A stretch of DNA of 64,000 nt from a bacterium (GTDB lineage Bacteria > CSSED10-310), in assembly GCA_049652745.1 (NCBI GenBank), contig JBASEY010000042.1:6153-70152 (forward strand), given 5' to 3'. The first letter of the stretch is position 1, and each line of letters opens with the position of its first letter. Positions 17,721-58,392 of this stretch are shown here, piece by piece. The notes under the pieces are model-generated. The model saw only the letters and a program-made list of their open reading frames with translations, was not told the origin of the DNA and ran no database searches. The translations under genes and the position numbers were made by a program.

Positions 17721-17735
17721 AAAGGAGGAGTTATC

Positions 17736-19225: not shown

Positions 19226-19272
19226 TGTTCTGGAAGAGAAATAAAACCTTTATCAGAAAGGTAGGTTACACT

Positions 19273-20454: not shown

Positions 20455-20599
20455 ATTTCGATACGGAAGCTGTTTCGAGCTGTTCGTGTGGGCTTGAATT
20501 GTTACGCTGAGAATTCTTGAAAAATATCGAATAAAGTTGATCTTTTACAAAAGGATGTTCTATCATGACCACGCTGGATTTTGTACGCAGAGGTTTGCC

Positions 20600-39598: not shown

Positions 39599-41005
39599 AT
39601 GGCGATCAACAGAGGTGAAAAAATAAAAATTTTATTGCAATCAGAAACAAGTTTGGATCATGTGGTCATTACCGGCTGGATTCGGCAGAAGCGTGAAAGC
39701 AAATCATTGTTGTTTTTACTGATCAATGACGGCTCGTGCCTATCGGGAATACAGGTTGTAGCTGAATCCCATCTTGAGAATTTTGAATCGGTCAGGAAAA
39801 CATCGATTGGATCGAGTGTTCGTATCTCGGGTCGTCTTGTCGATTCACCAGGCAAAGAGCAGAAATATGAAATTCATGCCGACCAAATCGAGATTTTCGG
39901 TGAGTGCGACGATGACTACCCTCTTCAGAAAAAACGGCATAGTTACGAGTTTTTACGCTCGATCGCTCATTTGAGACCTAGAACCAACAGTTTTGGGGCG
40001 GTTTTTCGTGTTCGGAATGCCGCGGCATATGCCATTCATGAATTTTTTCAGGAAAAAGGCTTTTTTTACATTCACACGCCGATAATCAGCAGCTCGGATT
40101 GTGAAGGCGCCGGTGAGATGTTTCAGGTCACAACTCTCCCTTTGCACAATGTGCCAATGAGGAAAACCGATCAAGGTGGGCTGGAAGTGGATTTCTCTCA
40201 GGATTTTTTCAAAATTCCGACAGGTTTGACGGTCAGCGGGCAGCTTGAAGGAGAGTTGTTTGCAATGTCCTTGTCGGAAATTTACACCTTCGGCCCGACA
40301 TTTCGAGCAGAAAACTCCAATACACCTCGACATGCGGCGGAATTCTGGATGATCGAGCCGGAAATGGCGTTTTATGATTTGGACGATAATATCGCTCTAG
40401 CAGAGTTGTTTATCAAAGAAGTCACTCGGCGCGTGCGCCGACGATGTGAAGACGATCTGGCATTTTTCAATGAGCGGATCGATCCAACATTGTTTGAACG
40501 ATTGGACGCGATAGAAAAATTCACGTTTGAGATACTGACTTATACCGAGGCGGTTGATTTGCTTAAAAAGTCAAACAAAACGTTTGATTTTCCCGTTTCT
40601 TGGGGTATGGATTTACAAACGGAGCACGAACGGTATTTGACGGAGGAATTGATTAAAAAGCCGACTTTTGTCCGGGATTATCCGTTGGATATCAAAGCGT
40701 TTTACATGCGTCGCAGTGATGACGGCAGAACAGTCGCCGCTATGGATCTTCTGGTGCCTCGTATCGGTGAGATAATCGGCGGCAGTCAGCGTGAAGAACG
40801 GTTGGATGTTTTAAAGGAGCTGATAGAACTCAAAGGCCTGGATATGAAAAACTATTGGTGGTATCTGGATACTCGGCGTTTTGGCTCGGCTCCTCATGCC
40901 GGTTTCGGTCTTGGATTTGAACGGCTGCTTCAATACGTGACCGGAATGGCCAACATACGTGATGTCATTCCTTTTCCGAGGACTCCGGGGAATGCGGAGT
41001 TTTAG
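39599..41005 (+). CDS. asnS: asparaginyl-tRNA synthetase
   Basis: Class II aaRS motifs (FRAENSNTPRHAAEFWMIEPEM, GSAPHAGFGLGFERL). RBS AAAGGAG 8 nt upstream of the ATG at 39599. Confidence 0.9.
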   Translation: MAINRGEKIKILLQSETSLDHVVITGWIRQKRESKSLLFLLINDGSCLSGIQVVAESHLENFESVRKTSIGSSVRISGRLVDSPGKEQKYEIHADQIEIFGECDDDYPLQKKRHSYEFLRSIAHLRPRTNSFGAVFRVRNAAAYAIHEFFQEKGFFYIHTPIISSSDCEGAGEMFQVTTLPLHNVPMRKTDQGGLEVDFSQDFFKIPTGLTVSGQLEGELFAMSLSEIYTFGPTFRAENSNTPRHAAEFWMIEPEMAFYDLDDNIALAELFIKEVTRRVRRRCEDDLAFFNERIDPTLFERLDAIEKFTFEILTYTEAVDLLKKSNKTFDFPVSWGMDLQTEHERYLTEELIKKPTFVRDYPLDIKAFYMRRSDDGRTVAAMDLLVPRIGEIIGGSQREERLDVLKELIELKGLDMKNYWWYLDTRRFGSAPHAGFGLGFERLLQYVTGMANIRDVIPFPRTPGNAEF

Positions 41006-41591
41006 TGTTTTCTTTTTGTTCGGCGTCGCCGGCATGTAATGTCTGTTCACCATCTTTCAAGACATTTAGTATGTTTTGACGTGAAGAGCCTATCCAGCGT
41101 TCAGGAAGAAGATAGTCTATCCATTCGTCCGGTAAAACGTTTACAGTCGCCGCAGCGCCATTGACGATTTTCAGGCTGACAGAAGAATTGTCGATCCAAG
41201 GCCTGGTTGATGGAATAAGATAGACAATTGTCAGAATGGCTCCGGAGATCGCCAGGCCTTGTACCAGCCCTAGAAGTCCGCCCAGCAGGCGGTTAAGAAA
41301 GCTCAGGTTGGCCAATGATACGATTCGGTGCATCAAAGCTGCCAGTATGAACCCGGCAAGAGAAGTCAAGGAAAAGATAATGATGAAAGAGAGCAGTTTG
41401 CCGACAAAAAAATCTTTTGCGCCGAAAAACTGACCGATTGCAACTCCCAGCGGCCGAGCAAAAGCCATGCTTAAAACGATACCACCGATAATGCCTAGCA
41501 AGCCTAGAACCGTTCGGATAAACCCCTTGAAAATTCCGGTCACCGTAGGTGCCACAAGAATACAGACTATAAAATAATCGAGGGTGTTCAT
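40965..41591 (-). CDS. cvpA: CvpA-family membrane protein (colicin V production protein)
   Basis: Typical CvpA N-terminus (LDYFIVCILV...GIFKGFIRTVLGLLG) and 4 TM helices. Confidence 0.8.
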   Translation of the reverse strand: MNTLDYFIVCILVAPTVTGIFKGFIRTVLGLLGIIGGIVLSMAFARPLGVAIGQFFGAKDFFVGKLLSFIIIFSLTSLAGFILAALMHRIVSLANLSFLNRLLGGLLGLVQGLAISGAILTIVYLIPSTRPWIDNSSVSLKIVNGAAATVNVLPDEWIDYLLPERWIGSSRQNILNVLKDGEQTLHAGDAEQKENTKTPHSPESSEKE

Positions 41592-42769
41592 ACTGCCATC
41601 TTCCCTTTATCATAGTGCTGAAGGATATGTTCCGCTGCAACACGGGCGCCCTGGGCGCATGCGGCTTCAGTTGAGCCGGGAGCATCAGCCGGATTTCGAC
41701 TCATCAAATCTTCCAAATAATGTTTCCAGTTACCTTCAAGCAAAACTTTCCGGGGAATATATATACCGCAATTCCAATAGGGCATTTGTTCCATGATCAC
41801 ATCATATTCTCGGAACGGACCTCGATCGGTGTAAAGCATTCGAGTATGATTGACGGCACATTCGGACACGATTCCATACCCCGGTTTGGTGACGACGACA
41901 TCCACTGCTCCAACAAGATCGGGATATTTTATACCATATGATTCAAGCGGTTTCAATTCCGTTATCTGCATGCTGTTCATTGGAAATGTAGTAAGCAATC
42001 GAAAATCTTGTAATTGATTCGAAGCTCCTAAAGATTTTCCATCCAAACCCATTCCTCCGAACGAAAGCAGTACGAGAGGTCTTGTTTCCGTGTGTAAGCC
42101 AAGGCGTTTTCTGACCACACTTTTAGGCAGCGTGGCTTTTCTGCCCAGCATAGGTATATCGGAAATCGTCGGGAACGTACCCATTGCCGGCGCATATGGC
42201 AACCGTAACAACTCATCACAAAGGGAATACTCATTTCTCATGCCGTCAGCGATTTCTGCGACTTTGGGATAGTCATCGATCCATGCGTCGTAGATCCAGT
42301 CCCACGAAAAATTCGTTACGGCGAGGCTGGGTATTCCCACCGACCGAGCCAACATATGCGCGGCGGATGGTATATCGCTGACGACACATCCGGCTCGGTG
42401 AGTTTTCAGTGAAGATATTTCTGTTTGACAAATTTCCGGAAACCTGTCTTTTAACTGTTCAAACTCCCGTATAGTCTCTGGTACATCCATTGAAATGCCG
42501 TCTTTTTGCACTACGCCGATGTCCATTTTACAATACGTGACAGTGTAGTCCGGACACATCTCGGCAAAGATTTTTCGTGATGCCCATGACCTGATATAAA
42601 TGGGAATGTCGGGTCTGAAACGCTTTAAAGCATCGATGACTTCGATAGATCGGGTTGCATGGCCGAAACCATGTCCCGAGATATAGTAAAAAATCGATCG
42701 CTCCGATGCCCGGCTGGGCGTGGGGAGACGTTCATTATCGTTGTTTTTTCGATTCACGAACCTGTTCAC
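41588..42769 (-). CDS. GT-B fold glycosyltransferase-like protein (MurG/GT28/GT1-like)
   Basis: N-terminal Gly-rich ISGHGFGHATR motif and C-terminal KPGYG...E region, typical of GT-B nucleotide-sugar binding. Family assignment tentative. Confidence 0.45.
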   Translation of the reverse strand: MNRFVNRKNNDNERLPTPSRASERSIFYYISGHGFGHATRSIEVIDALKRFRPDIPIYIRSWASRKIFAEMCPDYTVTYCKMDIGVVQKDGISMDVPETIREFEQLKDRFPEICQTEISSLKTHRAGCVVSDIPSAAHMLARSVGIPSLAVTNFSWDWIYDAWIDDYPKVAEIADGMRNEYSLCDELLRLPYAPAMGTFPTISDIPMLGRKATLPKSVVRKRLGLHTETRPLVLLSFGGMGLDGKSLGASNQLQDFRLLTTFPMNSMQITELKPLESYGIKYPDLVGAVDVVVTKPGYGIVSECAVNHTRMLYTDRGPFREYDVIMEQMPYWNCGIYIPRKVLLEGNWKHYLEDLMSRNPADAPGSTEAACAQGARVAAEHILQHYDKGKMAV

Positions 42770-42779
42770 ACGTTGTCAT

Positions 42780-44228
42780 TCAAGTGTCGTTCGAGCGTTT
42801 GACACGTTTTTTTCTTGTAAAACCGGATGTGTTGAAACCTTCCTGCAGAGCTCGCCACAGCGATATTTTCCAACGTTTTCGATAGATAAACAGAAAGCTG
42901 ATTCGATGAATGAGAGTGAAGACGACATTGGGAGGCCATTTCAGCAACGGTTTTATCAAGGGAAACAGCGCAGGATAATTGAACAGAATATAAAAAAACT
43001 TATGTAAATTCACGCTTTGGCGTATCGCAGGCTGTTGTAGAACGCTGTTTGAATGGTAGTTGGGTTCGATTGCATCGACATCCAGGTGGGGAACCAGCTT
43101 TTCCGCTAAAACCATATCACCTAGTTCCGTTCGAGGATAAGGTTGAAATACCGAGCACCATGTGAAGGTTGGATTGAGTTCCCAGGTAAAGGTCACCGTT
43201 CGAAACGCCTGCTCCAACGTTTCATTGGGAAGGCCAAGAATATTGGTTGTGCAAAAATTGATTTTATACTTGTGGAACAACGCCGCCGCTTCTTTCAACT
43301 GAGCGTCGGTGATGTTTTTATTCAAAATTTCATTTCTTAATCGTTCATCCCCTGTTTCGACACCGATAACCACGTTGTAGCATCCGGCATCTTTCAATGC
43401 TTTGACGGTTTCGTCATCGATGGAATCCGCTCGTGCATAGCAGATAAAAGGCAAATCGAAGTTTTTTGCATATTTGTCACAAAATTCCAGCAGCCAGGTT
43501 TTGTTTACGGCAAATTGGTCGTCTTCGAATAGAAACGTTTCAACCGGCCAACGCTTTTTCAAGGCTTTCATCTCGTCAATTACATTATCGACGGATCGCC
43601 GTCTTATATAAGCGCCTTTACCCTTATAGAGTTTTTTCATGCTGTGATTGAAACAAAACGCGCAATTGTGTGGACAACCTCTGCTGGAAATCAATCTTTT
43701 AATAGGGTTGTCCTTGATCAAGGGGTATCGATAAAGGGACTCCCGGTTGACAAACGGCAGGGAATCCAGATCTTCGATAAGGGGTCTGACGGGGTTCCGA
43801 ATGATTTGGCCGCCTATTTTGACGTGGATATTTTCTACATGCTGAATGTCATCGGGAATTTTTTCTACAGCGAGAATTTCCGGAAGAACATATTCCCCTT
43901 CTCCGACACAGATCATGTCCAGGTATGATGAATGAGACAAAATTTCGGGAAAAAACGTCGGATGTGGTCCTCCCATTATCGTAGTGATATCGGAGCTGAT
44001 TTCTTTTTTGATATGTTCGCACAGTTGGTGAGCCCAAAGTTGTGTTCCCGTCACCGTGCTGAATGCGACAAATCGAGGCTTTGAGCGGTTGACTTCTTTT
44101 AGGAGGTCCTTGTCTTTCCCAATGACGATATCGGCTTTAAACCCGGCTTTCCGGGCGGCCGCCACCAGGCTCATAGCGCCTAAAGATTCAAACCAAATGT
44201 TTTGCAAAAATAAAATATCCACTCGCAC
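42780..44228 (-). CDS. B12-binding domain radical SAM protein
   Basis: N-terminal cobalamin-binding Rossmann region. CxxxCxxC (CPHNCAFC) radical SAM cluster motif. Confidence 0.85.
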   Translation of the reverse strand: MRVDILFLQNIWFESLGAMSLVAAARKAGFKADIVIGKDKDLLKEVNRSKPRFVAFSTVTGTQLWAHQLCEHIKKEISSDITTIMGGPHPTFFPEILSHSSYLDMICVGEGEYVLPEILAVEKIPDDIQHVENIHVKIGGQIIRNPVRPLIEDLDSLPFVNRESLYRYPLIKDNPIKRLISSRGCPHNCAFCFNHSMKKLYKGKGAYIRRRSVDNVIDEMKALKKRWPVETFLFEDDQFAVNKTWLLEFCDKYAKNFDLPFICYARADSIDDETVKALKDAGCYNVVIGVETGDERLRNEILNKNITDAQLKEAAALFHKYKINFCTTNILGLPNETLEQAFRTVTFTWELNPTFTWCSVFQPYPRTELGDMVLAEKLVPHLDVDAIEPNYHSNSVLQQPAIRQSVNLHKFFYILFNYPALFPLIKPLLKWPPNVVFTLIHRISFLFIYRKRWKISLWRALQEGFNTSGFTRKKRVKRSNDT

Positions 44229-44463
44229 TGTTTACCGTTTCTTCGGTCTCAGGTCAAGATCATCACCATGGACTGGTCTTCAAACAACCTGGAACGACGT
44301 TCTTTTCTTAGCGCCATGCCGAAGGGTGTTTTTGAGGGAACGACAAATTCACAAGCATGCCCGGCCATGTTTTCAACTCGATATCACGATCTTTTGAAAT
44401 GAAATTTATATTTTTATCGCTCCAATTTTACAAAAAATCAGACTTTTGCCAGAATAGGCTAGG

Positions 44464-45735
44464 GTGCGAACACGGATTGGGAGGTGTTTTATAGTGAATC
44501 ATTTCGGCAAAATAAAATGGTTTCTGGTGTTGATGTTTTTATTTCCTCGTGCGGTGTATTCAAATGCTGTGATTTACCCTGTTTTTGCGGATGGATGGCT
44601 TGTAGCCGGCAATAAAACCGTTGGGACGGCGGTTCGCCTTATGCGTGTCGGGATGTGGTCGGAGGCTCAGGAGGAACTGCAAAAGTCGGTATGGAATCGA
44701 CCGCGAAATCATGCCGCTCAATTCAATTTAGGCGTGTGCTATGAACGTGTCGGGCAGCTTGAAAACGCCAAACGTTTTTACCAGCGTGCCGTCGATCTTC
44801 GTCCGGAGGCTCTTTATTGTGAAGGACTGGCTCGTTTGGACGGCGTCGCAGGCAGGGGCGCTGAATTTGTCAAGTTTTTAATACCCTGTGATAGTTCGTG
44901 TAACCATGGATATGTATTTGCCAGAGCCGGCATGTGGGAATATGCCTCCCGGCTATTTGAAAATGCTTATCATTATCGATCGAATGCCACCACGGCTTTG
45001 AACCTTGCCGTGGCTTATGAAGTGTTGGGCAATCGTCGGGACGCCGATCGAATGATTCGGAATGCATCGGCATTGGGTAGTAATCAGCAATATTTGTCCT
45101 TCGCGCACTATCTGTCATCATCGTCGGATTTACCGTTGGAGATGGCGATATGTTTGCCGGATATTACGACCGTTACCGATATGCCGGTATTGAAAACAGC
45201 ATTTATCATCGGTGACAACGCAGTATTGCGTTTGAGTCCGTCGCACGACTCCCCTGTCTTGGCGCAGTTGCGCCAAAATACCCGGGTCGATGTTCTGTCG
45301 CTCTCATCGACGTGGACACGGGTTCGAACTCACCAAAACAAAGAAGGATTTTTACCGACACTGTTTCTCTCTTCAGAATATGTTACAGAAAAAACGGCAG
45401 TTCATGGTTATTCAACTGCGCATTCACAGGCTGCCGTAATAGAAGAGCATGAAGAATATGATGAGTATGAAGATATTTATGAACAGATTTTTGAAAATCC
45501 CGAGCCTTCGATTACCGTGACGATTCCTGAGGATGGAAACCGTGTAGCCATACGTGAAAAACCATCGTTGATGGCTGAAATAACGGGATATTTGGAGCCG
45601 GGGGATAGTCTGGAAGTCAGGGAAAGCGATGTTTCATCCTGGTATGAAATTGTTGATGATTCGCGGCCTCAAGGGTTTATCTTAAAAATGCATACCAAGG
45701 CGCTCGAAAAGCGCCTTCTTGGCGATGAGAACTGA
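44464..45735 (+). CDS. secreted TPR protein with two C-terminal bacterial SH3-like domains
   Basis: Signal peptide. TPR-like repeats. Two SH3b-like segments near the C-terminus. Confidence 0.5.
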   Translation: MRTRIGRCFIVNHFGKIKWFLVLMFLFPRAVYSNAVIYPVFADGWLVAGNKTVGTAVRLMRVGMWSEAQEELQKSVWNRPRNHAAQFNLGVCYERVGQLENAKRFYQRAVDLRPEALYCEGLARLDGVAGRGAEFVKFLIPCDSSCNHGYVFARAGMWEYASRLFENAYHYRSNATTALNLAVAYEVLGNRRDADRMIRNASALGSNQQYLSFAHYLSSSSDLPLEMAICLPDITTVTDMPVLKTAFIIGDNAVLRLSPSHDSPVLAQLRQNTRVDVLSLSSTWTRVRTHQNKEGFLPTLFLSSEYVTEKTAVHGYSTAHSQAAVIEEHEEYDEYEDIYEQIFENPEPSITVTIPEDGNRVAIREKPSLMAEITGYLEPGDSLEVRESDVSSWYEIVDDSRPQGFILKMHTKALEKRLLGDEN

Positions 45736-45740
45736 GCGGC

Positions 45741-45755
45741 GCGCTCTGCGAGCGC
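45741..45755 (+). terminator. stem-loop GCGCTC-TGC-GAGCGC directly after a stop codon
   Basis: 7-bp GC-rich stem with a 3-nt loop. The same 15-mer recurs at 49079-49093. Confidence 0.45.
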
Positions 45756-46060
45756 GGTTCCTGGTTTCTGGTACTGGGTTTCTGGTTAGGTTTTTCAGTA
45801 GATTCATTTTTGGTGAGTCACCTATATGGTGGTAGATAACTATAGTTTCTTAAGTCGAACCACTTGGTGATTGGTTATTGGACATTGGATATTGGATATT
45901 GAATCTTCCATCCCTTGCCCCTTACCTCTTACCCCTGCTTCTTGCTTATAAAGCTAACCATTTGGATATTGGACATTCGGTCATACTTGATACTTTTGTG
46001 ACCATGATGTATAATAACTACAAAGTTTGCATTCTTTGAGATAGCGACGGATTTTATCGC
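45756..46060 (+). repeat. intergenic repeat element, copy A, carrying the promoter and RBS of the downstream gene
   Basis: Shares the GGTTCCTGGTTTCTG 5' motif, ATTGGAN heptad tandems (45877-45904), polypyrimidine tract CCCTTGCCCCTTACCTCTTACCCCTGCT and 3' motif GGATTTTATCG.TG.CCTTTGAAAGAAGGAG with copies B and C. Contains TTGATA-17nt-TATAAT (45987-46015). Confidence 0.6.
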
Positions 46061-46066
46061 TGACCT

Positions 46067-49000
46067 TTGAAAGAAGGAGCCAACATTATGAAACATTATT
46101 GCTGGTGGATAAAAACGTTAGTTGTCATCTGTATTCTGTTCGGATGCCAACTCGCCTCTTCAATGGCTGCGGTCACCATCGATGTGGAGATGCGTTTGAA
46201 TGACGGCGGCTTTGTATCGTATGACCATTTTCAAGCCGATTTGTATCTGAATAACTTGGGTCGAATGGTGTCGGATGCGAGTATATTCGGAATACTCGAG
46301 GTAATGGGTGAGTTTTTCTTTTGGCCGTCATTTTCGAGTGAAGTTGATTTTGAGTTGATGGATATAAAACCTGGCGAAACGGTGGTGACTATTCTAGCGT
46401 TTGATTTCGGTGACATCGAGGATTTCATCCCGTTCGGGCCGATGGTTTTCTGGGGAGCCTGGTTTTTGGATATGGAAACGTGGAACTACGATTCTCAGGA
46501 GTTTTGGTTGGGTCCAGAGCATAAATGGACGCCGACCCCTACGCCTACACCGACATCTACGCCTGCATCCACAATAATAGTCTCAGAAATGGTTTTCATT
46601 CCTCCAGGAACTTACATGCGTGGTTCACCGGACGATGAACCCTGTCGTTTCGCAAATGAAATCCGCAGGCAGATCTCTCTGACTCGTGGGTTTTATATGA
46701 TGCAAACGGAGGTGACCCGTCGGATGTGGGCGGATCTGAAATCCGTTCAGCCGGATTTGCCGGATGATCCGAGCGCAACGGCATTCAGCCCGACGATGGA
46801 TCATCCTGTACAGAATGTTACATGGTTTGATGCAGTATTGTTTGCAAATCTCATGTCACTTCAGGAAGGGTACAGGCAGTGCTACTATCTGGACCAGGTT
46901 TTCATGACGCCGTTGGATGCGACGAATTACACTTCGAATTCAGTCTATTGTGATTTCAATGCAAATGGATATCGTCTGCCTACTGATGCGGAATGGGAAT
47001 ACGCGTGCCGAGCAGGATCGGTCGGGCCGTTTTCATGCAGTGACCCCGATTTTACCGATTTGACTTGTCAATCTTGTGTACCGGGAACTCATCCGGAATT
47101 GGAGCGGCATTGCGTGTATTGTGCCAATAATTGGAATGGACCTGAAGTTGTAGGCAGTAAGTATCCGAATATGTGGGGCTTATATGATATGCACGGGAAC
47201 GTGTTTGAATGGTGTTGGGATTGGTATACCGTGAATCCATCGAGACCATTTGTGGATCCGACGGGACCGGAAACCGGCATACATAGAGTGGAGCGCGGTG
47301 GTTCATGGAGCGTCTACGCACAAAACTGCCGCTCGGCGATTCGGAGCAAGAACACGCCTTACAACCGAGACAACAATCGGGGTTTTCGTCTTGTCAGAAG
47401 CGCTACCGGGTTTATTTATATTCCTGGAGGAACATACACGCAAGGTTCACCAGACGATGAACCCTGTCGTCAGAGTGATGAAGACCAATATCACGTCACA
47501 CTGACCTGCGGATTTGACATGATGGTTACGGAGGCGACTCGGCAGATGTGGGCGGATCTAAAGCATTTTCTGAGCAGCTTTCCGGAAGACCCGAGCGATA
47601 CGAGTATCAGCCCGTCAATGATTCATCCTGTGCAGAATGTCACATGGAACGAAGCCGTATTATTTGCGAATATCTTGTCGATAAAGCGTAGGTTTGTTCC
47701 GTGCTACTATGCTGATGCGGAATTTACGGATGCCATAAATCTGAATAATTACACCTCAGATACAATTTTTTGTAATTTCGACGCTAACGGATATCGTCTG
47801 CCTACCGAAGCGGAATGGGAATATGCGTGTCGGGCAGGGACGGTCTGGCCGTTTACATGCTATGAGCCGAAGTATAACACCCGTAATTGTGAAACCTGTG
47901 AAGAAGAAACACATCGAACACTGGAACAGTACTGCGTCTATTGTGCAGCCGGCCAGACAGGAGCGAGTGTTGTCGGCAGCAAAAATGCCAATCAATGGGG
48001 GTTTTACGACATGCATGGCAATGTGAATGAATGGTGTTGGGATAGATATGGTTCGTATCCATCGGGCTCTGTAACGGATCCGACGGGACCGGAAACAGGA
48101 TCAAATCGAGTGGCACGGGGTGGCAGTTGGAACTGTAGCGCACGGAGCTGTCGGTCGGCGAATCGCAACAGCATTGCTCCGGACAGCCGTAGCCACCTTC
48201 TAGGTTTTCGCCTTGTGAGGAAGCCTATGGAGCTTACTCATATTTCCTCAGGAGATTTCAATCAAGGTCCATCATGGTATTTAGAACCTTGTCGTGACTC
48301 CTCTCTTGAAATCGGGCGTCACGTTACGCTGACCAGAGATTTCGAAATAATGCTTACAGAGGTGACCCGGCAGATGTGGGCTGATTTGAAGGCTGTTTGC
48401 CCGATGTTGCCGAACGATCCGAGCGACGAGACGGTGAGTCCGACGATGGATCATCCCGTGCAGAATGTCACATGGAATGAAGCTGTATTATTTGCGAATC
48501 TGATGTCGGCAAAGGACGGCTACAGGCAGTGCTATTACAAAGATGCTTATTTCACGTTGGTGCTAAGTGTGACGAATTACAATGAGCGCTTTTTCTTTTG
48601 CGATTTTGAAGCGGATGGGTACCGCCTTCCCACTGAAGCGGAATGGGAATATGTGTGTAGGGCTGGGACGACCGGAGCGTTTTCATGCGATGAGCCGTAT
48701 TATGATAGCTATAATTGTGAATCCTGTGATCCGGGAACGCTCCTGGATCTGGAACAGTATTGCGTCTTTTGTGCAAATTCTTCGAATGGTGCTGAGCTTG
48801 TCGGCAGTAAGCTTCCTAATCCATGGGAATTGTATGACATGCATGGCAACGTGAGTGAGTGGTGTTGGGACTGCTTTGAAAAATATCCATCGAAGCCTGT
48901 TGTAGATCCGACAGGAGGACCGCAACCCTGCCCTCTCGATTCACGCATAGAGCGAGGCGGCAGTTGGGATCACCCCGCGAAGTTCTGTCGGACGGCAAGT

Positions 49001-49072
49001 CGATCTTTTAGTAACTCCCGCACCCGTAAAAATTATCGGGGTTTTCGTCTTGTCAAAACGGTATTCCGCTAA
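46067..49072 (+). CDS. lipoprotein with three tandem FGE-sulfatase (SUMF1/GldK-like) domains
   Basis: Lipobox LFGC. PTPTPTPTSTP linker. Three repeats of about 277 aa, each with YRLPTEAEWEY.CRAG, YDMHGNV.EWCWD and RGGSW motifs. DNA-level period about 831 bp (domains begin near 46568, 47411, 48242). Confidence 0.8.
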   Translation: MKEGANIMKHYCWWIKTLVVICILFGCQLASSMAAVTIDVEMRLNDGGFVSYDHFQADLYLNNLGRMVSDASIFGILEVMGEFFFWPSFSSEVDFELMDIKPGETVVTILAFDFGDIEDFIPFGPMVFWGAWFLDMETWNYDSQEFWLGPEHKWTPTPTPTPTSTPASTIIVSEMVFIPPGTYMRGSPDDEPCRFANEIRRQISLTRGFYMMQTEVTRRMWADLKSVQPDLPDDPSATAFSPTMDHPVQNVTWFDAVLFANLMSLQEGYRQCYYLDQVFMTPLDATNYTSNSVYCDFNANGYRLPTDAEWEYACRAGSVGPFSCSDPDFTDLTCQSCVPGTHPELERHCVYCANNWNGPEVVGSKYPNMWGLYDMHGNVFEWCWDWYTVNPSRPFVDPTGPETGIHRVERGGSWSVYAQNCRSAIRSKNTPYNRDNNRGFRLVRSATGFIYIPGGTYTQGSPDDEPCRQSDEDQYHVTLTCGFDMMVTEATRQMWADLKHFLSSFPEDPSDTSISPSMIHPVQNVTWNEAVLFANILSIKRRFVPCYYADAEFTDAINLNNYTSDTIFCNFDANGYRLPTEAEWEYACRAGTVWPFTCYEPKYNTRNCETCEEETHRTLEQYCVYCAAGQTGASVVGSKNANQWGFYDMHGNVNEWCWDRYGSYPSGSVTDPTGPETGSNRVARGGSWNCSARSCRSANRNSIAPDSRSHLLGFRLVRKPMELTHISSGDFNQGPSWYLEPCRDSSLEIGRHVTLTRDFEIMLTEVTRQMWADLKAVCPMLPNDPSDETVSPTMDHPVQNVTWNEAVLFANLMSAKDGYRQCYYKDAYFTLVLSVTNYNERFFFCDFEADGYRLPTEAEWEYVCRAGTTGAFSCDEPYYDSYNCESCDPGTLLDLEQYCVFCANSSNGAELVGSKLPNPWELYDMHGNVSEWCWDCFEKYPSKPVVDPTGGPQPCPLDSRIERGGSWDHPAKFCRTASRSFSNSRTRKNYRGFRLVKTVFR

Positions 49073-49078
49073 TCAGGT

Positions 49079-49093
49079 GCGCTCTGCGAGCGC
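49079..49093. terminator. bidirectional stem-loop GCGCTCTGCGAGCGC between convergent genes
   Basis: Identical 15-mer hairpin to 45741-45755. Followed by GTGCTGAG x2 and a GGTTTTTCA motif shared with copy A. Confidence 0.45.
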
Positions 49094-49130
49094 TTCAGTG
49101 CTGAGTGCTGAGTTATAGGTTTTTCACTCG

Positions 49131-51304: not shown

Positions 51305-51618
51305 ATTGCCTAATGACTATTTTTGGCAATAGTATTGGGGCCACATCTGTCTATCATGAGATGCTGTTAGACAAGCTGGAGATGTGGCTGAAAATATTTT
51401 GAACACGATTCCAAAGATTACAAAGATGGGCAGGATTAGATTCTGATCTCTTTTCAATTTGACGCAATGTTATAGGTGATTACAAATCCAAATCAAATAT
51501 AATCATTGTCGTTTTATTCAGATTGACCAATCGCCCGAAATCCTCCATAATACAAGCATTGCTGCCTTTACAAAGGCTTATGTTTGTTAGGTTTCTCACA
51601 TTAACGCAGGCAAGGACT

Positions 51619-52443
51619 ATGGATACGAAAATTGCAGTTTTCAAAGGGAAGAAAGTCCGGAAAACCATTCATAATAATGAATGGTGGTTTTCGGTAGTTG
51701 ATGTATGTTCAATTTTAACAGATAGTGCAGATCCCGGCGCTTATTGGCGTAAGTTAAAACAACGACTGAAAGAAGAAGGAAGCGAAGTCGTGACATTTTG
51801 TCACGGGTTGAAATTAGAAGCTCCAGACGGAAAGATGAGAAGCACCGATTGCGCTAATACAGAGGCTCTCTTTCGTGTAATCCAATCAATCCCGTCACCC
51901 AAGGCGGAACCATTCAAACGATGGCTTGCGAAAGTCGGATACGAGCGGGTTCAGGAAATCGAAGATCCGGAGTTGGCGACAAAGCGCACACGGGCTTTAT
52001 ATAAAGCGAAGGGATACAGTGACAATTGGATCGAGAAACGGATGCGCGGAATCGCAATCCGGGATGAACTCACTGATGAATGGCAAAAGCGCGGTGTCAA
52101 GGAAGCGTCCGAATACGCTATACTGACAGCGGAGATATACAAAGCGGCGTTCGACATGACGCCATCGGAATATAAAAAGCACAAAAATCTGAAACGGGAA
52201 AATCTGCGGGATCACATGACGGATCTTGAACTGATTTTTTCTATGCTTGGGGAAGCATCAACAACGGAGATTGCCAGAACCCGAGACGCAAGGGGTTTTG
52301 GTGAAAATAAAAAAGCAGCCAGGGACGGGGGCTCTGTTGCCGGCAGAGCCCGTAAAGATCTTGAGGAGAAAAGCGGTCGGAAATTGGTTTCAGAACAAAA
52401 CTATCTGGATGAACCGGAGGACAAGAAGTTGCTGGACAAATAG
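51619..52443 (+). CDS. Bro-N domain protein, DinD / phage-antirepressor-like
   Basis: The N-terminal IAVFKGKKVR...WWFSVVDVCSIL pattern matches Bro-N/DinD. Start set at MDTKIAVF. Confidence 0.6.
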   Translation: MDTKIAVFKGKKVRKTIHNNEWWFSVVDVCSILTDSADPGAYWRKLKQRLKEEGSEVVTFCHGLKLEAPDGKMRSTDCANTEALFRVIQSIPSPKAEPFKRWLAKVGYERVQEIEDPELATKRTRALYKAKGYSDNWIEKRMRGIAIRDELTDEWQKRGVKEASEYAILTAEIYKAAFDMTPSEYKKHKNLKRENLRDHMTDLELIFSMLGEASTTEIARTRDARGFGENKKAARDGGSVAGRARKDLEEKSGRKLVSEQNYLDEPEDKKLLDK

Positions 52444-52549
52444 AATAGATGATCAAACCAGGTTAGTTACATAAATACTTTCAAATGAGCTAACTTAAAA
52501 GGATAAATATTTTTTATGAGCACTTCAGATAGAGGCTTGAAGGGTTAGA

Positions 52550-52735
52550 ATGTTGGCTGCCAAAGATAAAATGCAAGAAATAATCAGAAACCAACCAGAC
52601 GACAGTACGTACGATGAAATTCTGAGGGAACTTGCTTTTGCAGGAATGATTGAGCGCGGTTTGAAAGATTCAAGAGCTGACCGATCGACCTCTAACGAAG
52701 AAATGAATCGCAGGATTCGTTCATGGCAGAGATAA
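52550..52735 (+). CDS. putative type II antitoxin (small, RHH/ParD-like)
   Basis: 61-aa ORF overlapping the downstream RelE/ParE-like ORF by 13 nt. C-terminal IERGLKDSRADR...EEMNRRIRSW pattern is typical of ParE/RelE-partner antitoxins. Confidence 0.45.
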   Translation: MLAAKDKMQEIIRNQPDDSTYDEILRELAFAGMIERGLKDSRADRSTSNEEMNRRIRSWQR

Positions 52736-52938
52736 AATGGACTGAAGAAGCCGTGAAATGGTTGGACGAGAAACATAATTACATCAAAATGGACAGTTCA
52801 TCCAAAGCTGATAAAGTTTTCTCAACAATATTTGATAGACTTCAGCTTTTAAAGTCATTTCCTGAATTAGGTTATCCAAATAAATCAGAAAAAGAAGGTG
52901 ACATTCGCGTCTATTCGCGGTTCCTGGTTTCTGATTGA
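52723..52938 (+). CDS. RelE/ParE-family toxin, apparently 3'-truncated by the repeat element (possible pseudogene)
   Basis: N-terminal alpha-helical ParE-like region ...FPELGYP...GDIRV. The last 7 codons and the stop are supplied by repeat copy B. Typical toxins are 85-100 aa; this one is 71. Confidence 0.45.
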   Translation: MAEIKWTEEAVKWLDEKHNYIKMDSSSKADKVFSTIFDRLQLLKSFPELGYPNKSEKEGDIRVYSRFLVSD

Positions 52939-53140
52939 GGTTTTTGATTGATACAGGTTCAATGATTTTTCTCTTTAAATTTGAAGACAATCGAGTCCGC
53001 TAACTATCACTTAGGAATTGGAAATTGGATATTGGACATTGAAAAATCCAACCCCTTACCCCTCACCTCTTACCCCTGCTCTTGGTGATTGAGAAAACAT
53101 ACAAAGGATTTTATCGATGGCCTTTGAAAGAAAAGGAATG
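52916..53140 (+). repeat. intergenic repeat element, copy B
   Basis: About 90% identical to copy C over about 180 bp. Heptads ATTGGAA ATTGGAT ATTGGAC ATTGAAA (53017-53044). Polypyrimidine tract. 3' motif GGATTTTATCGATGGCCTTTGAAAGAAAAGGA. Confidence 0.6.
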
Positions 53141-53187
53141 ATTAGAATCCGCACTTAGCCACAGATAAAATCTAATTATGATACAAA

Positions 53188-53592
53188 TTACTTTCTGTCT
53201 TTTAACAAATCGCGTATTTCTGTAAGCAATTTTTCCTGGACCGGGGGTTCCGGTGGAGCCTGGGGCGCTTCTTGCTCTTTCCGTTTGAGTGTGTTCATAG
53301 CCTTGACTGCCATGAAAATGGAGAAAGAGATGATCAGAAAATCGACGATCGTCTGAATGAATTTTCCATACCCGATGACAACCGCAGGATCATCTCCAAC
53401 AGCTTCTTTTAGAACAATCGCCAGGTTCGTGAAATCGACACCGCCCAACAATATACCGATAGGCGGCATGATCACATCACCTACGAAGGATGAAACGATT
53501 TTACCGAAAGCGGCACCGATAATGATACCGACAGCCATATCGATCACATTCCCTTTTACTGCAAATTCCTTGAACTCTTTTATCATACCCAT
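53188..53592 (-). CDS. mscL: large-conductance mechanosensitive channel
   Basis: Near-canonical MscL sequence ([35 protein letters not shown]...). Confidence 0.95.
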
Positions 53593-53797
53593 GGCACATC
53601 CCCCCTGTAAAAAATGATGGCTCTTATCGTCTGAAGAGCGATTGCTTTTGTGAAAGCGGATTTATGTTGCCGGTTGCGTAAAAAGCTTTTCTATTATCCC
53701 TTTTCTCATAATGACACGTTGACCGGCGTCTTTCGTTGCACCCTATAAATTATATCCAAAACGCGTGTTAACCGCAATGAAACGAGCATTCCACCTG

Positions 53798-53995
53798 CGC
53801 GGAACGCTGTTTCTGATTCCTGGTTGAGGTTTTTGATTGATACAGGTTCAATGATTTTTCTATTTAAATTTGAAGACAATCGCGCCTGCTAACTATCACT
53901 TGGGAATTGGAAATTGGACATTGAAAAATCCAACCCCTTATGCCTCCTACCTTACCCCTCACCCCCTGTTCCCGGCTTCTTGCCCTTCGATGGCT
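53798..53995 (+). repeat. intergenic repeat element, copy C
   Basis: Close homologue of copy B, with a rearranged 5' motif and one heptad fewer. Lies in direct orientation with B, so the two bracket mscL. Confidence 0.6.
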
Positions 53996-54060
53996 GATAG
54001 TGTTATCATAGACTTATAAAGATCAGCATTCCCAGTGTATGGCAGAGGAGGTTCGACGAT

Positions 54061-55386
54061 ATGGAAAAGCTTTTCAAGCTCAGGGAACACAAAACGGATG
54101 TGTCGACCGAAATCATGGCGGGTATCACGACGTTTTTGACGATGTCCTACATCATCGTCGTCAATCCCGGCATCTTGGAGGCTGCCGGGATACCCGTCGG
54201 TCCACAAACCGTCGCGACCATTTTAACGGCTGCTCTGGGCTGTATTTTGATGGCCTTTTATACCAATCGGCCGTTTGCGATGGCTCCCTATATGGGTGAA
54301 AATGCGTTCATCGCCTACACGGTTGTGCTGGGTATGGGCAAATCCTGGCAGGCGGGAATAACGGCTGTATTGATCGGAGGGATCGCCTTTATCTTGATCA
54401 CTGCGTTTAAGCTTCGTTCATGGTTGGCAGCGGCGATACCCACCAATTTGAAGCATTCGTTCGTCGTCGGCATAGGATTGTTTTTGACTTTGGTCGGCCT
54501 GTTGACATCGGGTCTGATCGTCAAACCGGAAGCCCCGGGAGTTCCAGTCGGAATAGGCGATTTAACGAGTGGTGAAAGCATTTTGGCCATCCTGGCGTTT
54601 TTGATCATGTCACTGATGATCATTCGCAAAATAAAAGGCGGCATCATGGCCGGAATTTTAGTGACGACCGCTCTGGCCTATTTCTTGAAATATACAGGCA
54701 TCGATCTGCCTTGTGTTTCCTTTCCTACAGGGTTTGTTTCCAAACCACCGTCTGTAACGCCCATCATGTTTCAATTTCGTTTCAACGAAGTGTTCACATG
54801 GGATTTTTTCCCCATTCTTTTAACCGTTTTTATCATGGATTTTGTCGACACCATGGGAACAGTCATCGGCGTCAGTGCTCGAGCAGGTTTTTTGGATGAG
54901 AACGGGAATCTTCCCGGCATAGAAAAGCCGATGATGGCCGATGCGATTTCTTCGGTTGTCGGTGCGTGTTTTGGAACGACCACCAGTGGCATCTATATCG
55001 AATCGGCGGCAGGAATCGAGGAAGGCGGCCGAACCGGTTTGACGACGCTGACAACCGGTGTTTTGTTTTTGCTGGCGCTGTTTTTTACGCCGATTTTGAC
55101 GGCGGTGCCTAAATGCGCTTATGGTCCGGCGCTGATCATCGTCGGGGTTCTGATGATGGACTCGGTACGAAGAATCGATTTTACGGATTTGACGGAGTGG
55201 ATACCTTCTTTTGTTGTCATCATCTTCATGTGTTTTTCCTATAATATCGGCATCGGCTGCACGGCGGGTTTTGTATCGTATCCGGTCGTAAAAACGATCG
55301 CCGGGAGATATCGAGAAGTCAATATCGGCACCTGGATTCTGGGCGCAGTATCGCTGCTGATGTTTATCTTTTATCCTTATCACTGA
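54061..55386 (+). CDS. NCS2-family purine permease (AzgA/PbuG-like guanine-hypoxanthine permease)
   Basis: The N-terminus TEIMAGITTFLTMSYIIVVNPGIL is typical of the AzgA/GhxP subfamily. RBS GGAGG upstream. Confidence 0.85.
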   Translation: MEKLFKLREHKTDVSTEIMAGITTFLTMSYIIVVNPGILEAAGIPVGPQTVATILTAALGCILMAFYTNRPFAMAPYMGENAFIAYTVVLGMGKSWQAGITAVLIGGIAFILITAFKLRSWLAAAIPTNLKHSFVVGIGLFLTLVGLLTSGLIVKPEAPGVPVGIGDLTSGESILAILAFLIMSLMIIRKIKGGIMAGILVTTALAYFLKYTGIDLPCVSFPTGFVSKPPSVTPIMFQFRFNEVFTWDFFPILLTVFIMDFVDTMGTVIGVSARAGFLDENGNLPGIEKPMMADAISSVVGACFGTTTSGIYIESAAGIEEGGRTGLTTLTTGVLFLLALFFTPILTAVPKCAYGPALIIVGVLMMDSVRRIDFTDLTEWIPSFVVIIFMCFSYNIGIGCTAGFVSYPVVKTIAGRYREVNIGTWILGAVSLLMFIFYPYH

Positions 55387-55453
55387 TCAAAGCAATAAAT
55401 CTATTAGGCGGTCAGCATTGAGCGATTTAGCCTGCTGTGCTATAAAACGCGGC

Positions 55454-56824
55454 ATGAAGAGGTTGGCTCCTGTTAAATATTTGTTCTTGATTTTGATAAT
55501 CGGTTTTTTCTTGTTGAATTCGGGATGTGATCGTGATGATTTGTCGAATTATCAACCGACAAAACAATCCGAAAAGCCGCTGAATGTATTGATGATTTGC
55601 CTGGACACGCTTCGCGCAGACCGGTTGAGCTGTTACGGATATGACCTGCCGACGTCACCGTTTATGGATGAACTGTCTCGACATTCTATTCTCCTGACAG
55701 ATGTGCTGGTTCAGAATCCTTCTACAATTTTGTCACACCGTGCTATCTTCACCGGGAATTATGTGTTCCGACAGGGGTCTGGGCCGGCACCCGAATCACA
55801 AACGCTTGCCGGTATACTGACAAAGGCGGGCTATGCCACAGCGGCATTCACGGATGGTGGTTTGATGAGCCTGCGTTTCGGCAACGCCCCTGGTTTCGAA
55901 CTCTATAACGATGCCGCAGGGGGCTCTAAACGCGTTTTCGGCAGAGGTGTCGACTGGATCGATTCCAATCCCGGAAAGCCGTTTTTTCTGTTTCTCCATA
56001 CTTATGAAGTTCATTACCCCTATACTCCTCCCCAACCATTTAACGATATGTTCCTGCCGACGGGTGAGCCACCTTATCACCTGGGAAAAGATTTCGGACA
56101 GGAGTATTGGAATAATCTGGATTTGAAAAGACAGGATTTTATTTGGATTTCCCGACGCTATGATGGTGGCATCAGATATGTCGATACGATTATGATGGAT
56201 TTGTGGAAAGCGTTGGTAACGCGAAACCTGTTGAACAACACAATTGTCATTATCCATTCCGATCACGGGGAAAGCATGGGGGAAAGACTCTTTGTCGGCC
56301 ATCGAGACCCCTATGAGCCTCAGATTCATATCCCGCTTCTGTTTCATGTTCCCGGCTGGAAACATGCCGTGATCGATGGCGCTGTCGAGAGCGTCGATAT
56401 CGCTCCCACCTTGCTCGATCTGCTCTCGATCAAATCACAAAGGTCTTTCTGCGGGCAGTCGCTGGTCTCAAATTTACACAACAGTGAACATTTAAGTGCG
56501 TTTCGACCCAGATTGAGCGAAACCTGGATGCGGGCATTTCGTCTTGGCCCTGAATGGAAATTGATGCTTTGTGACAAAGATGAAAATGATCGTTTATACC
56601 GTCTGACGGATGATCCTGAGGAAATGACAAGTCTGGACAAGGAATATCCGGAAATTGTCGAAGAGCTTAGACAAGGATTGGTACAGTTTATGGGGGTGGA
56701 GAGAACTCGCATTCACAAATTACCGGAAGCGCCCAAGGTGCCGGTTGTTTTGATGCCACTGGACGGTGAAAACGAAGAAAATGTCGAGATGCAACAATTG
56801 AGAGAATTAGGGTATATTCACTAA
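55454..56824 (+). CDS. sulfatase-like hydrolase/transferase of the alkaline-phosphatase superfamily (Thr-nucleophile variant, not the CxPxR type)
   Basis: Lipoprotein signal (LLNSGC). MICLDTLRADRLSCYGY motif in place of C-x-P-x-R. Metal-binding HSDHGE motif. Confidence 0.7.
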   Translation: MKRLAPVKYLFLILIIGFFLLNSGCDRDDLSNYQPTKQSEKPLNVLMICLDTLRADRLSCYGYDLPTSPFMDELSRHSILLTDVLVQNPSTILSHRAIFTGNYVFRQGSGPAPESQTLAGILTKAGYATAAFTDGGLMSLRFGNAPGFELYNDAAGGSKRVFGRGVDWIDSNPGKPFFLFLHTYEVHYPYTPPQPFNDMFLPTGEPPYHLGKDFGQEYWNNLDLKRQDFIWISRRYDGGIRYVDTIMMDLWKALVTRNLLNNTIVIIHSDHGESMGERLFVGHRDPYEPQIHIPLLFHVPGWKHAVIDGAVESVDIAPTLLDLLSIKSQRSFCGQSLVSNLHNSEHLSAFRPRLSETWMRAFRLGPEWKLMLCDKDENDRLYRLTDDPEEMTSLDKEYPEIVEELRQGLVQFMGVERTRIHKLPEAPKVPVVLMPLDGENEENVEMQQLRELGYIH

Positions 56825-56833
56825 AAGGAGGTT

Positions 56834-58336
56834 ATGGTGGTGGAAAATAATCCACAACGTAGTGAATCGGCTGAAAATGAGTATATGCAAATCCGATTGA
56901 AAAAAATCGAATTGATGAAAGATGAAGGAATTCAGGTTTACCCGGATCGGTTTCCGGACGCACTCACCTGCGGCGAAGCGGCGAAACTGCCGGCAGGACA
57001 TGAAGGTGTGCGATGCGCCGGCCGGATCATATCGATTCGGAAAATGGGCAAATTGATGTTTCTACATATCCAGGACATCACGGGAAAAATTCAAATCGCC
57101 CTTCGCAAAGGCGGTATCAGCGATAAGACCTTCGAGCTGGCAAAAGAAGTGTTGGATATCGGCGATTTTATCGGCGTGGAGGGGCACATAATTGTAACGC
57201 GAACCGGCGAACTGACAATCGATGTCACAGAGTACATGTTTCTATCTAAATCGCTCCATCCGCTGCCGGAAAAATGGCATGGGTTGACGGATACAGAAAT
57301 GATTTACCGGCGCCGCTACTTGGATTTGGTCATGAGTCAACATGCCAGGACCAAATTTCTGGCCAAAAGTCGATTGATCCAGGTCATGAGAGAAGTTTTT
57401 CTCAGAAACGACTTCATCGAGGTCGAGACTCCCGTTCTGCAATGCAAGCCGTCGGGGGCCATGGCGCGGCCTTTCCGCACCTATCATGAAGCGCTGAATA
57501 TGGATGTCTATCTGCGTATAGCGCCGGAAACCTACCTGAAACGCCTGTTGGTTGGAGGATACAATCGTGTTTTTGAGTTCGCACGGTGCTTTCGCAATGA
57601 AGGAATCAGCGCGGATCATCTTCAGGATTTCACCATGCTGGAATATTATGTGGCATACTGGAATTATGAAGACAATATGCGTTTTACCGAAAAATTGATT
57701 CAGGAAGCTATGGAAGCCGTCACGGGATCGACAAGGGTTGTTGTTGCAGGGCAAGAAATTGATTTTGGCGGCAATTGGGAACGAGTGACGTTCAGGGATG
57801 TGATCGCCCGGGATGCCGGAATCGATATCGACGAATATGCCGACGCTGATAGTCTACTGAAAGTAATAGTCGAACGGAACATTCTTCCGGGAGTTCCTTT
57901 GGAAGAGCTGAAAAAATTGGGACGAGGAAACCTGTTGGACCAGTTGTTCAAGAAAGTGTCGCGTCCGCGGATGATACAACCGCAATTTCTTGTCGGGCAT
58001 CCGATCGATGTGTCGCCCCTGGCCCGTTCAAATGATAAAAATCCATCAACAGTCGATCGTTTTCAACTGATCGCCGGCGGCGTCGAATTGGTCAATGCCT
58101 ACTCGGAGCTGGCCGATCCGGTCGATCAACGGCAACGATTCGAAGCTCAAGCACGGTTGCGGGCAGCCGGTGATGAAGAAGCTCTGGCTTATGACGAAGA
58201 TTATATTCTGGCATTGGAATATGCCATGCCGCCGGCTTCGGGCTGGGGAATGGGTATAGACAGATTTATGAAATTTCTTTTCAATGAAGAGAATATTAAA
58301 AACTGTGTGCTGTTTCCATTGATGCGGCCTGAGTGA
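56834..58336 (+). CDS. lysS: lysyl-tRNA synthetase, class II
   Basis: N-terminal OB-fold anticodon-binding domain. Class II motifs (FRNEG, GGVELVNAYSEL, GMGIDR). RBS AAAGGAGG. Confidence 0.9.
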   Translation: MVVENNPQRSESAENEYMQIRLKKIELMKDEGIQVYPDRFPDALTCGEAAKLPAGHEGVRCAGRIISIRKMGKLMFLHIQDITGKIQIALRKGGISDKTFELAKEVLDIGDFIGVEGHIIVTRTGELTIDVTEYMFLSKSLHPLPEKWHGLTDTEMIYRRRYLDLVMSQHARTKFLAKSRLIQVMREVFLRNDFIEVETPVLQCKPSGAMARPFRTYHEALNMDVYLRIAPETYLKRLLVGGYNRVFEFARCFRNEGISADHLQDFTMLEYYVAYWNYEDNMRFTEKLIQEAMEAVTGSTRVVVAGQEIDFGGNWERVTFRDVIARDAGIDIDEYADADSLLKVIVERNILPGVPLEELKKLGRGNLLDQLFKKVSRPRMIQPQFLVGHPIDVSPLARSNDKNPSTVDRFQLIAGGVELVNAYSELADPVDQRQRFEAQARLRAAGDEEALAYDEDYILALEYAMPPASGWGMGIDRFMKFLFNEENIKNCVLFPLMRPE

Positions 58337-58392
58337 CAAATCGAATCGTGAAGCAACCTAAACCAAACTCGTTATTTCAAAAGAGTCGTCTG

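Follow-up and report, generated by a model that had tools for sequence, protein, structure and literature searches.

What is the repeated sequence that precedes the triple-FGE gene in this stretch of DNA, and does it serve the gene behind it? The window, by which we mean the whole 64-kb stretch of contig JBASEY010000042.1 (assembly GCA_049652745.1) analysed here, contains several intergenic segments in which seven-nucleotide units (heptads) are repeated in tandem. Its LysRS is nearest to that of candidate division CSSED10-310 (73% identity), with Planctomycetota next at ~55%. An earlier note had taken the repeats for the binding array of a regulator, or for a mobile promoter cassette resembling a miniature inverted-repeat transposable element (MITE), which would provide the FGE gene with its promoter and ribosome-binding site (RBS). 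We propose instead that they are copies of a lineage-restricted, low-copy, modular intergenic repeat of the CSSED10-310 clade, a spacer prone to slippage and recombination that possibly acts as a terminator or insulator. We give this reading a probability of about 55%.

How many copies are there, and are they truly related? Three homologous copies lie on the plus strand, A (45741-45978), B (52916-53082) and C (53805-53975), each ~170-200 bases long, non-coding and located between genes. The three-copy family with a shared 5' motif and tandem heptads that the earlier note had described is thus borne out, and its similarity stays significant on formal alignment. In gapped blastn, with a pairwise search space of 128 kb, B matches C at 86% over 162 nt (E=5e-43), A matches B at 67% over 193 nt (E=6e-15) and A matches C at 63% over 184 nt (E=8e-7). 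An ungapped repeat search of the 64 kb pairs B (52916-53076) with C (53805-53965) at 81% over 161 nt, and returns three-copy families for the 5' motif and the heptads as well. A family profile built from six members recovers A, B, C and nothing else across the 64 kb, all inside 8.3 kb. Tandem Repeats Finder (TRF) reports period-7 arrays of GGTTTCT (45756-45787), ATTGGAT (45870-45901, 53016-53045 and 53900-53927) and ACCCCTT (53051-53077), with 3.9-4.6 units in A, B and C; all arrays fall between called genes and are therefore non-coding. Over 153 kb of lineage loci, period 7 accounts for 18 of 89 TRF rows. When patterns were counted in the window and in shuffled sequence, the heptad pattern gave 6 matches against 0.05 expected, the 5' motif 4 against 0.22, the C/T tract 2 against 0 and the 3' motif 2 against 0. 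Two shared features that had been claimed hold in part. The extreme C/T richness of the tract is real, but the letters quoted for it are those of B; A shows 2 differences from them, and C is diverged. The 27-nt 3' motif occurs in A and B but is missing from C.

The anatomy of the element emerges from an alignment of 11 copies in three genomes. Below, L numbers denote loci outside the window: L022-L028 belong to a related species whose FGE protein is 65% identical to that of the window, and L005, L006, L008 and L010 to the related metagenome-assembled genome (MAG) CAYOJK01. The order of parts is constant: a GC hairpin, GGTTYCT heptads, a spacer, an array of CACTTGG+(ATTGGAY)n and a C/T-rich heptad tract. 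The hairpin has the sequence GCGCTC-NNN-GAGCGC, and exact copies occur in the window at 45741 and 49079, two where 0.13 are expected by chance. The 5' module starts with GCGGTT, runs into GGTTYCT heptads and ends in GGTTTTTC(A/G)GTTGATT; some copies have AGTGCTG or GTCCTGA heptads instead. That of copy A is kept in L008b, L006 and the L022 orthologue and looks terminator-like in a simple scan. The spacer measures 60-70 nt, ends in CTATAGnnnCTGAAnTCTAA and comes in few types, an A-type shared by A, L008b and L022-X and a B-type shared by B, C and L022-Y. The middle array opens with CACTTGG, continues with 2-5 ATTGGAY units and closes with ATTGAA. The last part is C-rich and G-poor and is built of CCCTTAC-like heptads; when 60-nt windows of the 64 kb are ranked by C>G skew, the C-tracts of C, A and B take ranks 1, 2 and 7. 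The parts of copy A and the other copies are as follows.

45741-45755, plus strand: GC-rich hairpin GCGCTCTGCGAGCGC, the 5' boundary of copy A, 5 nt past the stop codon of the TPR/SH3 gene.
45756-45798, plus strand: 5' module of copy A, ~4.6 units of GGTTYCT ending in GGTTTTTCAG (TRF period 7).
45799-45861, plus strand: A-type spacer of copy A, ending in CTATAG..CTTAAGTCGAAC; it aligns with L008b and with element X of L022.
45862-45903, plus strand: heptads of copy A, CACTTGG TGATTGG TTATTGG ACATTGG ATATTGG ATATTGA (motif search, TRF).
45904-45944, plus strand: C/T-rich heptads of copy A, CCCTTGC CCCTTAC CTCTTAC CCCTGCT... (C>G skew rank 2).
45945-45978, plus strand: linker of copy A and a second short ATTGGAY pair (45962-45978), the right edge of a ~95-nt extra block.
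49079-49125, plus strand: partial fourth copy directly 3' of the FGE stop codon, made of the hairpin, (AGTGCTG)2.4 and GGTTTTTC/GTTATAGGTTTTTCAC.
52916-53082, plus strand: copy B, made of GGTTYCT heptads, a B-type spacer, CACTTAGG+(ATTGGAY)3+ATTGAA and a C/T tract (blastn, profile).
53805-53975, plus strand: copy C, between the divergent genes for MscL (minus strand) and a xanthine/uracil permease (plus strand) (blastn, profile; C>G skew rank 1).

Are these arrays stable? A sister strain (GCA_029973845.1, contig JARKRM010000173.1, L001) is 98.2% identical to the window over ~17.7-20 kb and encodes MscL identically. Across ~20 kb, all 13 gap openings between the two strains (13/13) fall inside element copies, and the aligned stretch to the left of the elements (43272-45754) is gap-free. 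Three independent changes each amount to a net 7 nt. In copy C the sister strain has one more ATTGGAT at 53913 (+7 nt), in the partial copy it has one AGTGCTG fewer (-7 nt, 49093-49102), and in the C-tract of copy A it has a net +7 nt (45936-45941) plus 1 nt; the C-tract of copy C shows a compensating +1/-1 pair. Each of the three arrays is thus an active heptanucleotide microsatellite, which grows or shrinks by one 7-nt unit at a time. Between copies, modules are also swapped or inserted as a whole: the 5' module and spacer of copy A (45755-45861, 107 nt) are replaced in the sister strain by 190 nt comprising a second terminal hairpin, an additional hairpin, (AGTGCTG)3 and an L006-type spacer. 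A ~2-kb block at 51500-53500, which spans the 3' part of the Bro-N gene, the antitoxin, the truncated ParE, copy B and the 3' part of the MscL gene, has zero mismatches to the sister strain, and its flanks differ by ~2%, which hints that the block may have been recently transferred or swept.

Comparison with the related species extends this picture from units and modules to gene order. By blastn, the window is colinear with L022 in five blocks: 40001-45756 with 2429-8166, 45741-48915 with 9634-12807, 52536-52910 with 13923-14298, 53185-53823 with 13095-13735 and 53866-60000 with 14523-20632. All breaks in colinearity lie in copies or in the hairpin (45741-45756, 52910-52916, 53185 and 53823-53866), and the hairpin likewise marks the limits of the presence or absence of FGE1, an FGE paralogue of the relative. 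The relative's orthologue of copy A consists of the hairpin, the GGTTYCT module and CACTTGGTGATTGG and then passes straight to CCATTCG...TTGATA; at the site orthologous to the copy A heptads it has the first two units only. The window carries ~95 nt more, namely the heptads, the C-tract and the second ATTGGAY pair, with ATTGG units at the bounds: the relative (L022 9872-9900) reads GTGATTGG|CCATTCG, where the window has GTGATTGG on one side of the block and GATATTGG|ACATTCG on the other. Further downstream, the relative has the order MscL (minus strand), element X, antitoxin, a full-length ParE of 98 aa, element Y and permease. Copy C corresponds to the 5' end of X joined to the 3' part of Y; the intervening toxin-antitoxin genes are gone, and the toxin-antitoxin pair of the window now lies on the opposite side of MscL, where its toxin gene is broken off.

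52723-52938, plus strand: open reading frame of a ParE toxin, truncated at position 60 of 89 of the Pfam profile, right at the start of copy B (domain match).

The alignment of the ParE region with the relative ends at 52910, and a search in three frames downstream of B did not find the missing ParE C-terminus. The copies are thus local substrates of indels, module exchange and rearrangement, relative to both the sister strain and the related species. A scenario in which recombination from element to element excised and reintegrated MscL and the toxin-antitoxin genes was weighed but set aside, since a single crossover would not be expected to leave both B and C of Y-type (86% alike). As a separate observation, the segment 49131-52443, an ABC-2 transporter pair (minus strand) and a Bro-N domain gene (plus strand) between the FGE gene and the toxin-antitoxin pair, is missing from the orthologous locus of the relative; this inserted segment is bounded by element modules.

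Is there any regularity in how the element faces its neighbours? All ten copies that have a plus-strand gene downstream are co-oriented with it (A, C, the L022 orthologue of A, X, Y, L005, L006, L008a, L008b and L010). Each of the other three (B, element Z of the relative and the partial copy at 49079) borders on the stop codon of an upstream gene that runs in its own direction. About six independent copies lie between co-directional genes, and all are in the sense orientation, p ~0.016 if orientation were random. The hairpin sits 4-6 nt past five different stop codons, and GCGCTC-NNN-GAGCGC follows the stop codons of TPR-SH3, FGE1 and FGE3 in two species. The element is therefore polar, with its hairpin end at stop codons and its heptad/C-tract end upstream of the next gene's own promoter.

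Does the element bring the promoter and RBS of the FGE gene? The earlier note had identified a promoter, and its letters are indeed there: TTGATA-17-TATAAT at 45987-46015 scores 11/12 against the consensus. It lies beyond the segment common to A, B and C, so that copy A does not supply it. Two leader-like stretches matter here.

45987-46087, plus strand: FGE promoter TTGATA-17-TATAAT (45987-46015) and the 5' untranslated region (UTR) with the RBS and the "3' motif" (46049-46075), outside the repeat.
53083-53140, plus strand: remnant of an FGE-type leader that follows copy B, CTTGGTGATTG ... GGATTTTATCGATGGCCTTTGAAAGAA, whose -35 and -10 were lost in a 64-nt internal deletion.

In the related species FGE1 precedes the triple-FGE gene, and both genes have the same leader: TTGATA-17-TATAAT, a ~70-nt 5'UTR, GGnTTTTATCGmTrACCTTTrAAAGAAGG and an N-terminus MKNYCWWIK. 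The leader of FGE1 adjoins the TPR-SH3 hairpin directly, without the GGTTYCT module, the heptad expansion or the C-tract. The four leaders (two species, two paralogues) are at least 90% identical, against ~74% in the coding region. Because the leader is conserved across species and precedes FGE1 without the repeat, we attribute the predicted promoter, the 5'UTR, the "3' motif" and the RBS to the FGE gene itself and not to the repeat; the claim that copy A provides the RBS falls. The "3' motif" of B is the tail of an FGE-type leader, and no gene follows it on the plus strand. The conservation suggests that the FGE leader is constrained, possibly for a cis-regulatory role. The leader loci compared were window 45987-46100 and L022 8190-8306 and 9899-10012; RNAalifold gives them a weak fold of -7.06 kcal/mol with one compensatory pair. 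The gene that follows (46088-49072) encodes 994 aa with a signal peptide and three FGE-sulfatase domains and contains internal repeats of ~822-828 nt; the single-domain FGE paralogue that stands beside the triple-FGE gene in the relative is missing from this strain.

Could the heptads still act on the promoter behind them? The ATTGGAY arrays may be a promoter-upstream contingency repeat or a regulator-binding array in which unit number tunes downstream expression, an alternative that we regard as unlikely. Heptads bound by a regulator are known, as the TTTTGAT heptads at ctxAB are bound by ToxR. To our knowledge, the (ATCTTTC)n tract upstream of hmw1A is the only heptamer tract to have been dissected experimentally. 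That tract, at H. influenzae hmw1A/hmw2A, is transcribed as part of the 5'UTR; it needs 11 units or more and works by pairing with a G-rich arm, which RNase III cleaves (PMC12721329). The precedent is pertinent (PMC12721329): like the arrays here, it is a heptameric simple sequence repeat (SSR), the gene downstream of it encodes a secreted or surface protein, and its unit number changes by slippage, as copy C differs by one unit between strains. The arrays of A and C lie 55-150 nt upstream of promoter-like sites, every FGE leader in the relative has kept CACTTGG TGATTGG, 15 nt upstream of its -35, and several downstream genes encode secreted proteins. Unlike the hmw1A tract, however, the arrays here are short (3-5 units), have no conserved pairing partner and lie upstream of the -35, as in copy A (45862-45944, with the -35 at 45987), rather than within the promoter spacer or the 5'UTR, the places from which heptamer phase variation is known to act (PMC12721329). 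The conserved leader itself contains no array. Only the first two units (CACTTGG TGATTGG) form a conserved piece of the region upstream of the FGE promoter, and the relative's leader looks functional with these two alone. Copy B has no promoter and faces a convergent gene, and no candidate protein is known for ATTGGAY binding. The difference in unit number between strains and between species argues against a fixed operator, and whole-unit changes between 98%-identical strains are more in keeping with a microsatellite than with an array of conserved operators. On inspection, the GG...GC spacing of the array also proved unsuitable for sigma-54, and that reading was dropped.

Is the element mobile in its own right? 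That it is a non-autonomous transposable element of the MITE kind, or a promoter cassette that some transposase carries around, seems to us very improbable. The copies resemble MITEs in being small, non-coding, intergenic and multi-copy, and one of them abuts a truncated gene, ParE, which is broken off precisely at the 5' end of B. Several copies share a sharp 5' end, (G)CGGTTCC, copies occupy non-homologous loci in the related MAG, and in other metagenomes CACTTGG/ATTGGAY arrays form inverted pairs around short GC-rich hairpins (L013, L016 and L017). An inverted-repeat search of A, B and C, on the other hand, found no terminal inverted repeats common to them. There is no target-site duplication at the ParE/B junction, beyond which the ParE 3' end is not found, and the ~95-nt block in A is bounded only by the array's own ATTGG units. 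Copy number appears low, with 3 in 64 kb, all close together, and 5 exact-pattern matches in the whole genome of the related MAG. Unlike MITEs, the genomes differ in the presence or absence of internal modules and not of whole elements, and the promoter, as described above, is outside the repeat.

Nor does the C-rich tract point to a nucleic acid structure. A transcribed structured small RNA, or a regulatory G-quadruplex on the minus strand as the earlier note had envisaged, would draw on the C-runs, which are G-runs on that strand, and heptameric G-quadruplex repeats are known in Xanthomonas and Nostoc (PMC4692102). When nine copies were scanned for G3+N1-7 x4, none matched (0/9), and A and B have only three C3+ runs; under a relaxed rule with loops up to 12, 3/9 pass (C, L005 and L006). 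The RNAalifold consensus comes to -1.35 kcal/mol, the heptad/C-tract part having no supported helix, and copy B folds no better than its shuffles (z=+0.92). Rfam returns no match at the gathering threshold for the window, nor at E<=1 for 45600-46200, and indels between strains are frequent. We consider both forms of this alternative extremely unlikely.

How far does the element extend beyond this locus? Further copies in related genomes, which the earlier note had left to be sought, do exist: CAYOJK01 has at least 5, all intergenic and at non-homologous loci. In the sampled loci of more distant CSSED10-310 relatives (LysRS 76-82% identical; L029-L031), both the element and heptad arrays are missing. 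Other short repeats keep it company. Intergenic regions of the related MAG are packed with interleaved families (L005 860-1350; L008 150-880 and 2190-2400; L006 2230-2690), for example AAATTGGAAGTCTGTCCCC, CAGATGTCTGTCCCC and CGCGAATGGACGCGAATGAACGC (10-nt period), and another common module, GAACACGATTACAAAGATTACAAAGAT..GGATTAGATT with a 9-nt GATTACAAA tandem, occurs at 51400-51440 of the window and three times in that MAG (L010 6365-6400, 6665-6700 and 6795-6830).

Outside the lineage, when metagenomes were scanned, 11 contigs of 43-65% GC matched CACTTGGNRATTGG...ATTGGAYATTGAA, one of them Desulfobacterales-like (GlmM 90% identical to "Deltaproteobacteria bacterium" MAGs). Their arrays lack the CCCTTAC tract and adjoin other heptads (GGTTGAT, CCAGAGG, GGACGGA, TTCATCC and CCTTCTG), and sometimes stand as inverted pairs around GC-rich hairpins, as in the three loci named above. 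Second arrays, on which the search pattern makes no demands, carry the same edge units, CACTTGG or YMCTTGR first and ATTGAA last. In L018/L021, G/T-rich heptads, a spacer, a CACTTGG array and C/T-rich heptads follow one another in the window's three-array order. From the common edge units, the direct or inverted pairs around GC-rich hairpins and the order in L018/L021, one could argue that a CACTTGG-(ATTGGAY)n-ATTGAA array flanked by G/T-rich and C/T-rich heptads is a composite element conserved across phyla, spanning CSSED10-310, the Desulfobacterales-like contig and high-GC contigs with prepilin-like proteins; it would be a recognition platform for some unknown but conserved protein that binds DNA or RNA, or the heptad-array ends of a new non-autonomous mobile element. 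We judge this improbable. Recurrent birth of microsatellites together with search bias could explain the arrays equally well, since pure (ATTGGAT)n arrays arise independently in viral contigs. Eight such contigs carry them without the CACTTGG and ATTGAA edges, and we take them as probable independent microsatellites; the CACTTGG pattern itself has 0 matches in viral contigs. Nor is the clustering of several heptad arrays unique to the lineage, because phage intergenic regions show the same: in the IMG/VR contigs L032-L034 and L036, different heptamers (GACGACT, ATTGGAT and GATTGGA) stand next to each other just upstream of a terminator hairpin. On the L018/L021 contig (L018 2852-2990, L021 2830-2960; 61% GC), a prepilin-type (N_methyl) gene has ATCAACC heptads that extend into its start codon and leader peptide, with a CACTTGG/ATTGGAT array ~65 nt upstream in antisense; the contig also has the CGAATGGCGCGAATGA motif in common with CSSED10-310 loci. 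Matches from the genome collection in Pedobacter, Lachnospiraceae and Bacteroidia fall in ordinary coding-looking sequence and were judged to be chance.

How does the element compare with known repeats? BOX of Streptococcus pneumoniae and the BIMEs/REP of enterobacteria are extragenic modular repeats with a fixed module order and variable internal tandem units. From general knowledge of these families, the likeness lies in the ordered non-coding modules, the GC-rich hairpin just past stop codons and the role as a recombination substrate. Unlike them, the present element has no Rfam match, no stable predicted RNA fold, an apparently low copy number and an internal tandem unit of 7 nt instead of 45 nt; it has no apparent sequence similarity to them either. 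REP/BIME palindromes typically number in the hundreds and come with a RAYT (Y1 transposase). G-quadruplex-forming heptamer repeats, reportedly described by Rehm et al. in 2015, are said to show at least four G3+ runs, separated by short loops, on a single strand. Passages of PMC4679880 and PMC4692102 that cite Mrazek 2007 present heptanucleotide repeats as the over-represented class of long SSRs in bacteria. Those described include STRR in Calothrix/Nostoc, GGGNATC in Xanthomonas and TAACTGA in Beggiatoaceae (PMC4692102, PMC4679880). Like these, the arrays here are short (2-6 units) and intergenic, with several heptamers per genome, unit numbers that vary between related strains and sites near stop codons or upstream of starts. 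The heptamers, in contrast, are GGTTYCT, ATTGGAY, CCCTTAC and AGTGCTG and the copies do not fit the canonical G-quadruplex rule; TAACTGA repeats adjoin start codons, which the arrays here do not; and three different arrays are joined in fixed order within a dispersed repeat of ~170-200 nt with conserved non-repetitive spacers. What sets the element apart is this packaging of three different heptad arrays as one dispersed unit, in fixed order, and its host, which belongs to an uncultured candidate phylum. As far as the evidence goes, no new mechanism is involved.

What, then, might the repeat do? In the reading that we favour, the element would have spread by duplication and homologous recombination along with flanking DNA, needing no dedicated transposase. 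Its most likely effect in the cell would be that of a polar, length-variable intergenic spacer or insulator. The hairpin and the U-rich heptads may together make up a terminator-like 3' gene end, and the C-rich, G-poor tract of the sense strand could act as a rut-like Rho-loading backstop against read-through. Changes in array length would shift the upstream sequence relative to the next promoter. Several observations weigh against this proposal. The hairpin lacks a canonical U-run behind it. Copy C has divergent genes on its two sides, with nothing there to insulate, although its position may be the product of rearrangement. Copy B is invariant, being identical in the sister strain and in Logan contigs from at least 16 samples, and the five intergenic regions of the relative are 100% identical throughout its seven assemblies, with zero heptad variation, although copies there have at most 2 units per array; slippage is therefore not rapid everywhere. 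Moreover, since the distant relatives lack the element, there is no outgroup by which gains and losses could be polarised.

What are the implications for this lineage? If we are right, the locus would be a clean natural example of heptanucleotide microsatellites inside a dispersed modular repeat in an uncultured candidate phylum, and the repeat would dominate the indel and rearrangement variation of the locus, both against a 98%-identical strain and against a sister species. There is also a warning for annotation: promoter and RBS "cassettes" deduced from repeats may be the leaders of paralogous genes. The finding touches the old question of why 7-nt repeats are the favoured class of long SSR in bacteria and whether they have any function, and it provides a testable locus, in which a strong, conserved promoter is preceded by arrays at a fixed distance.

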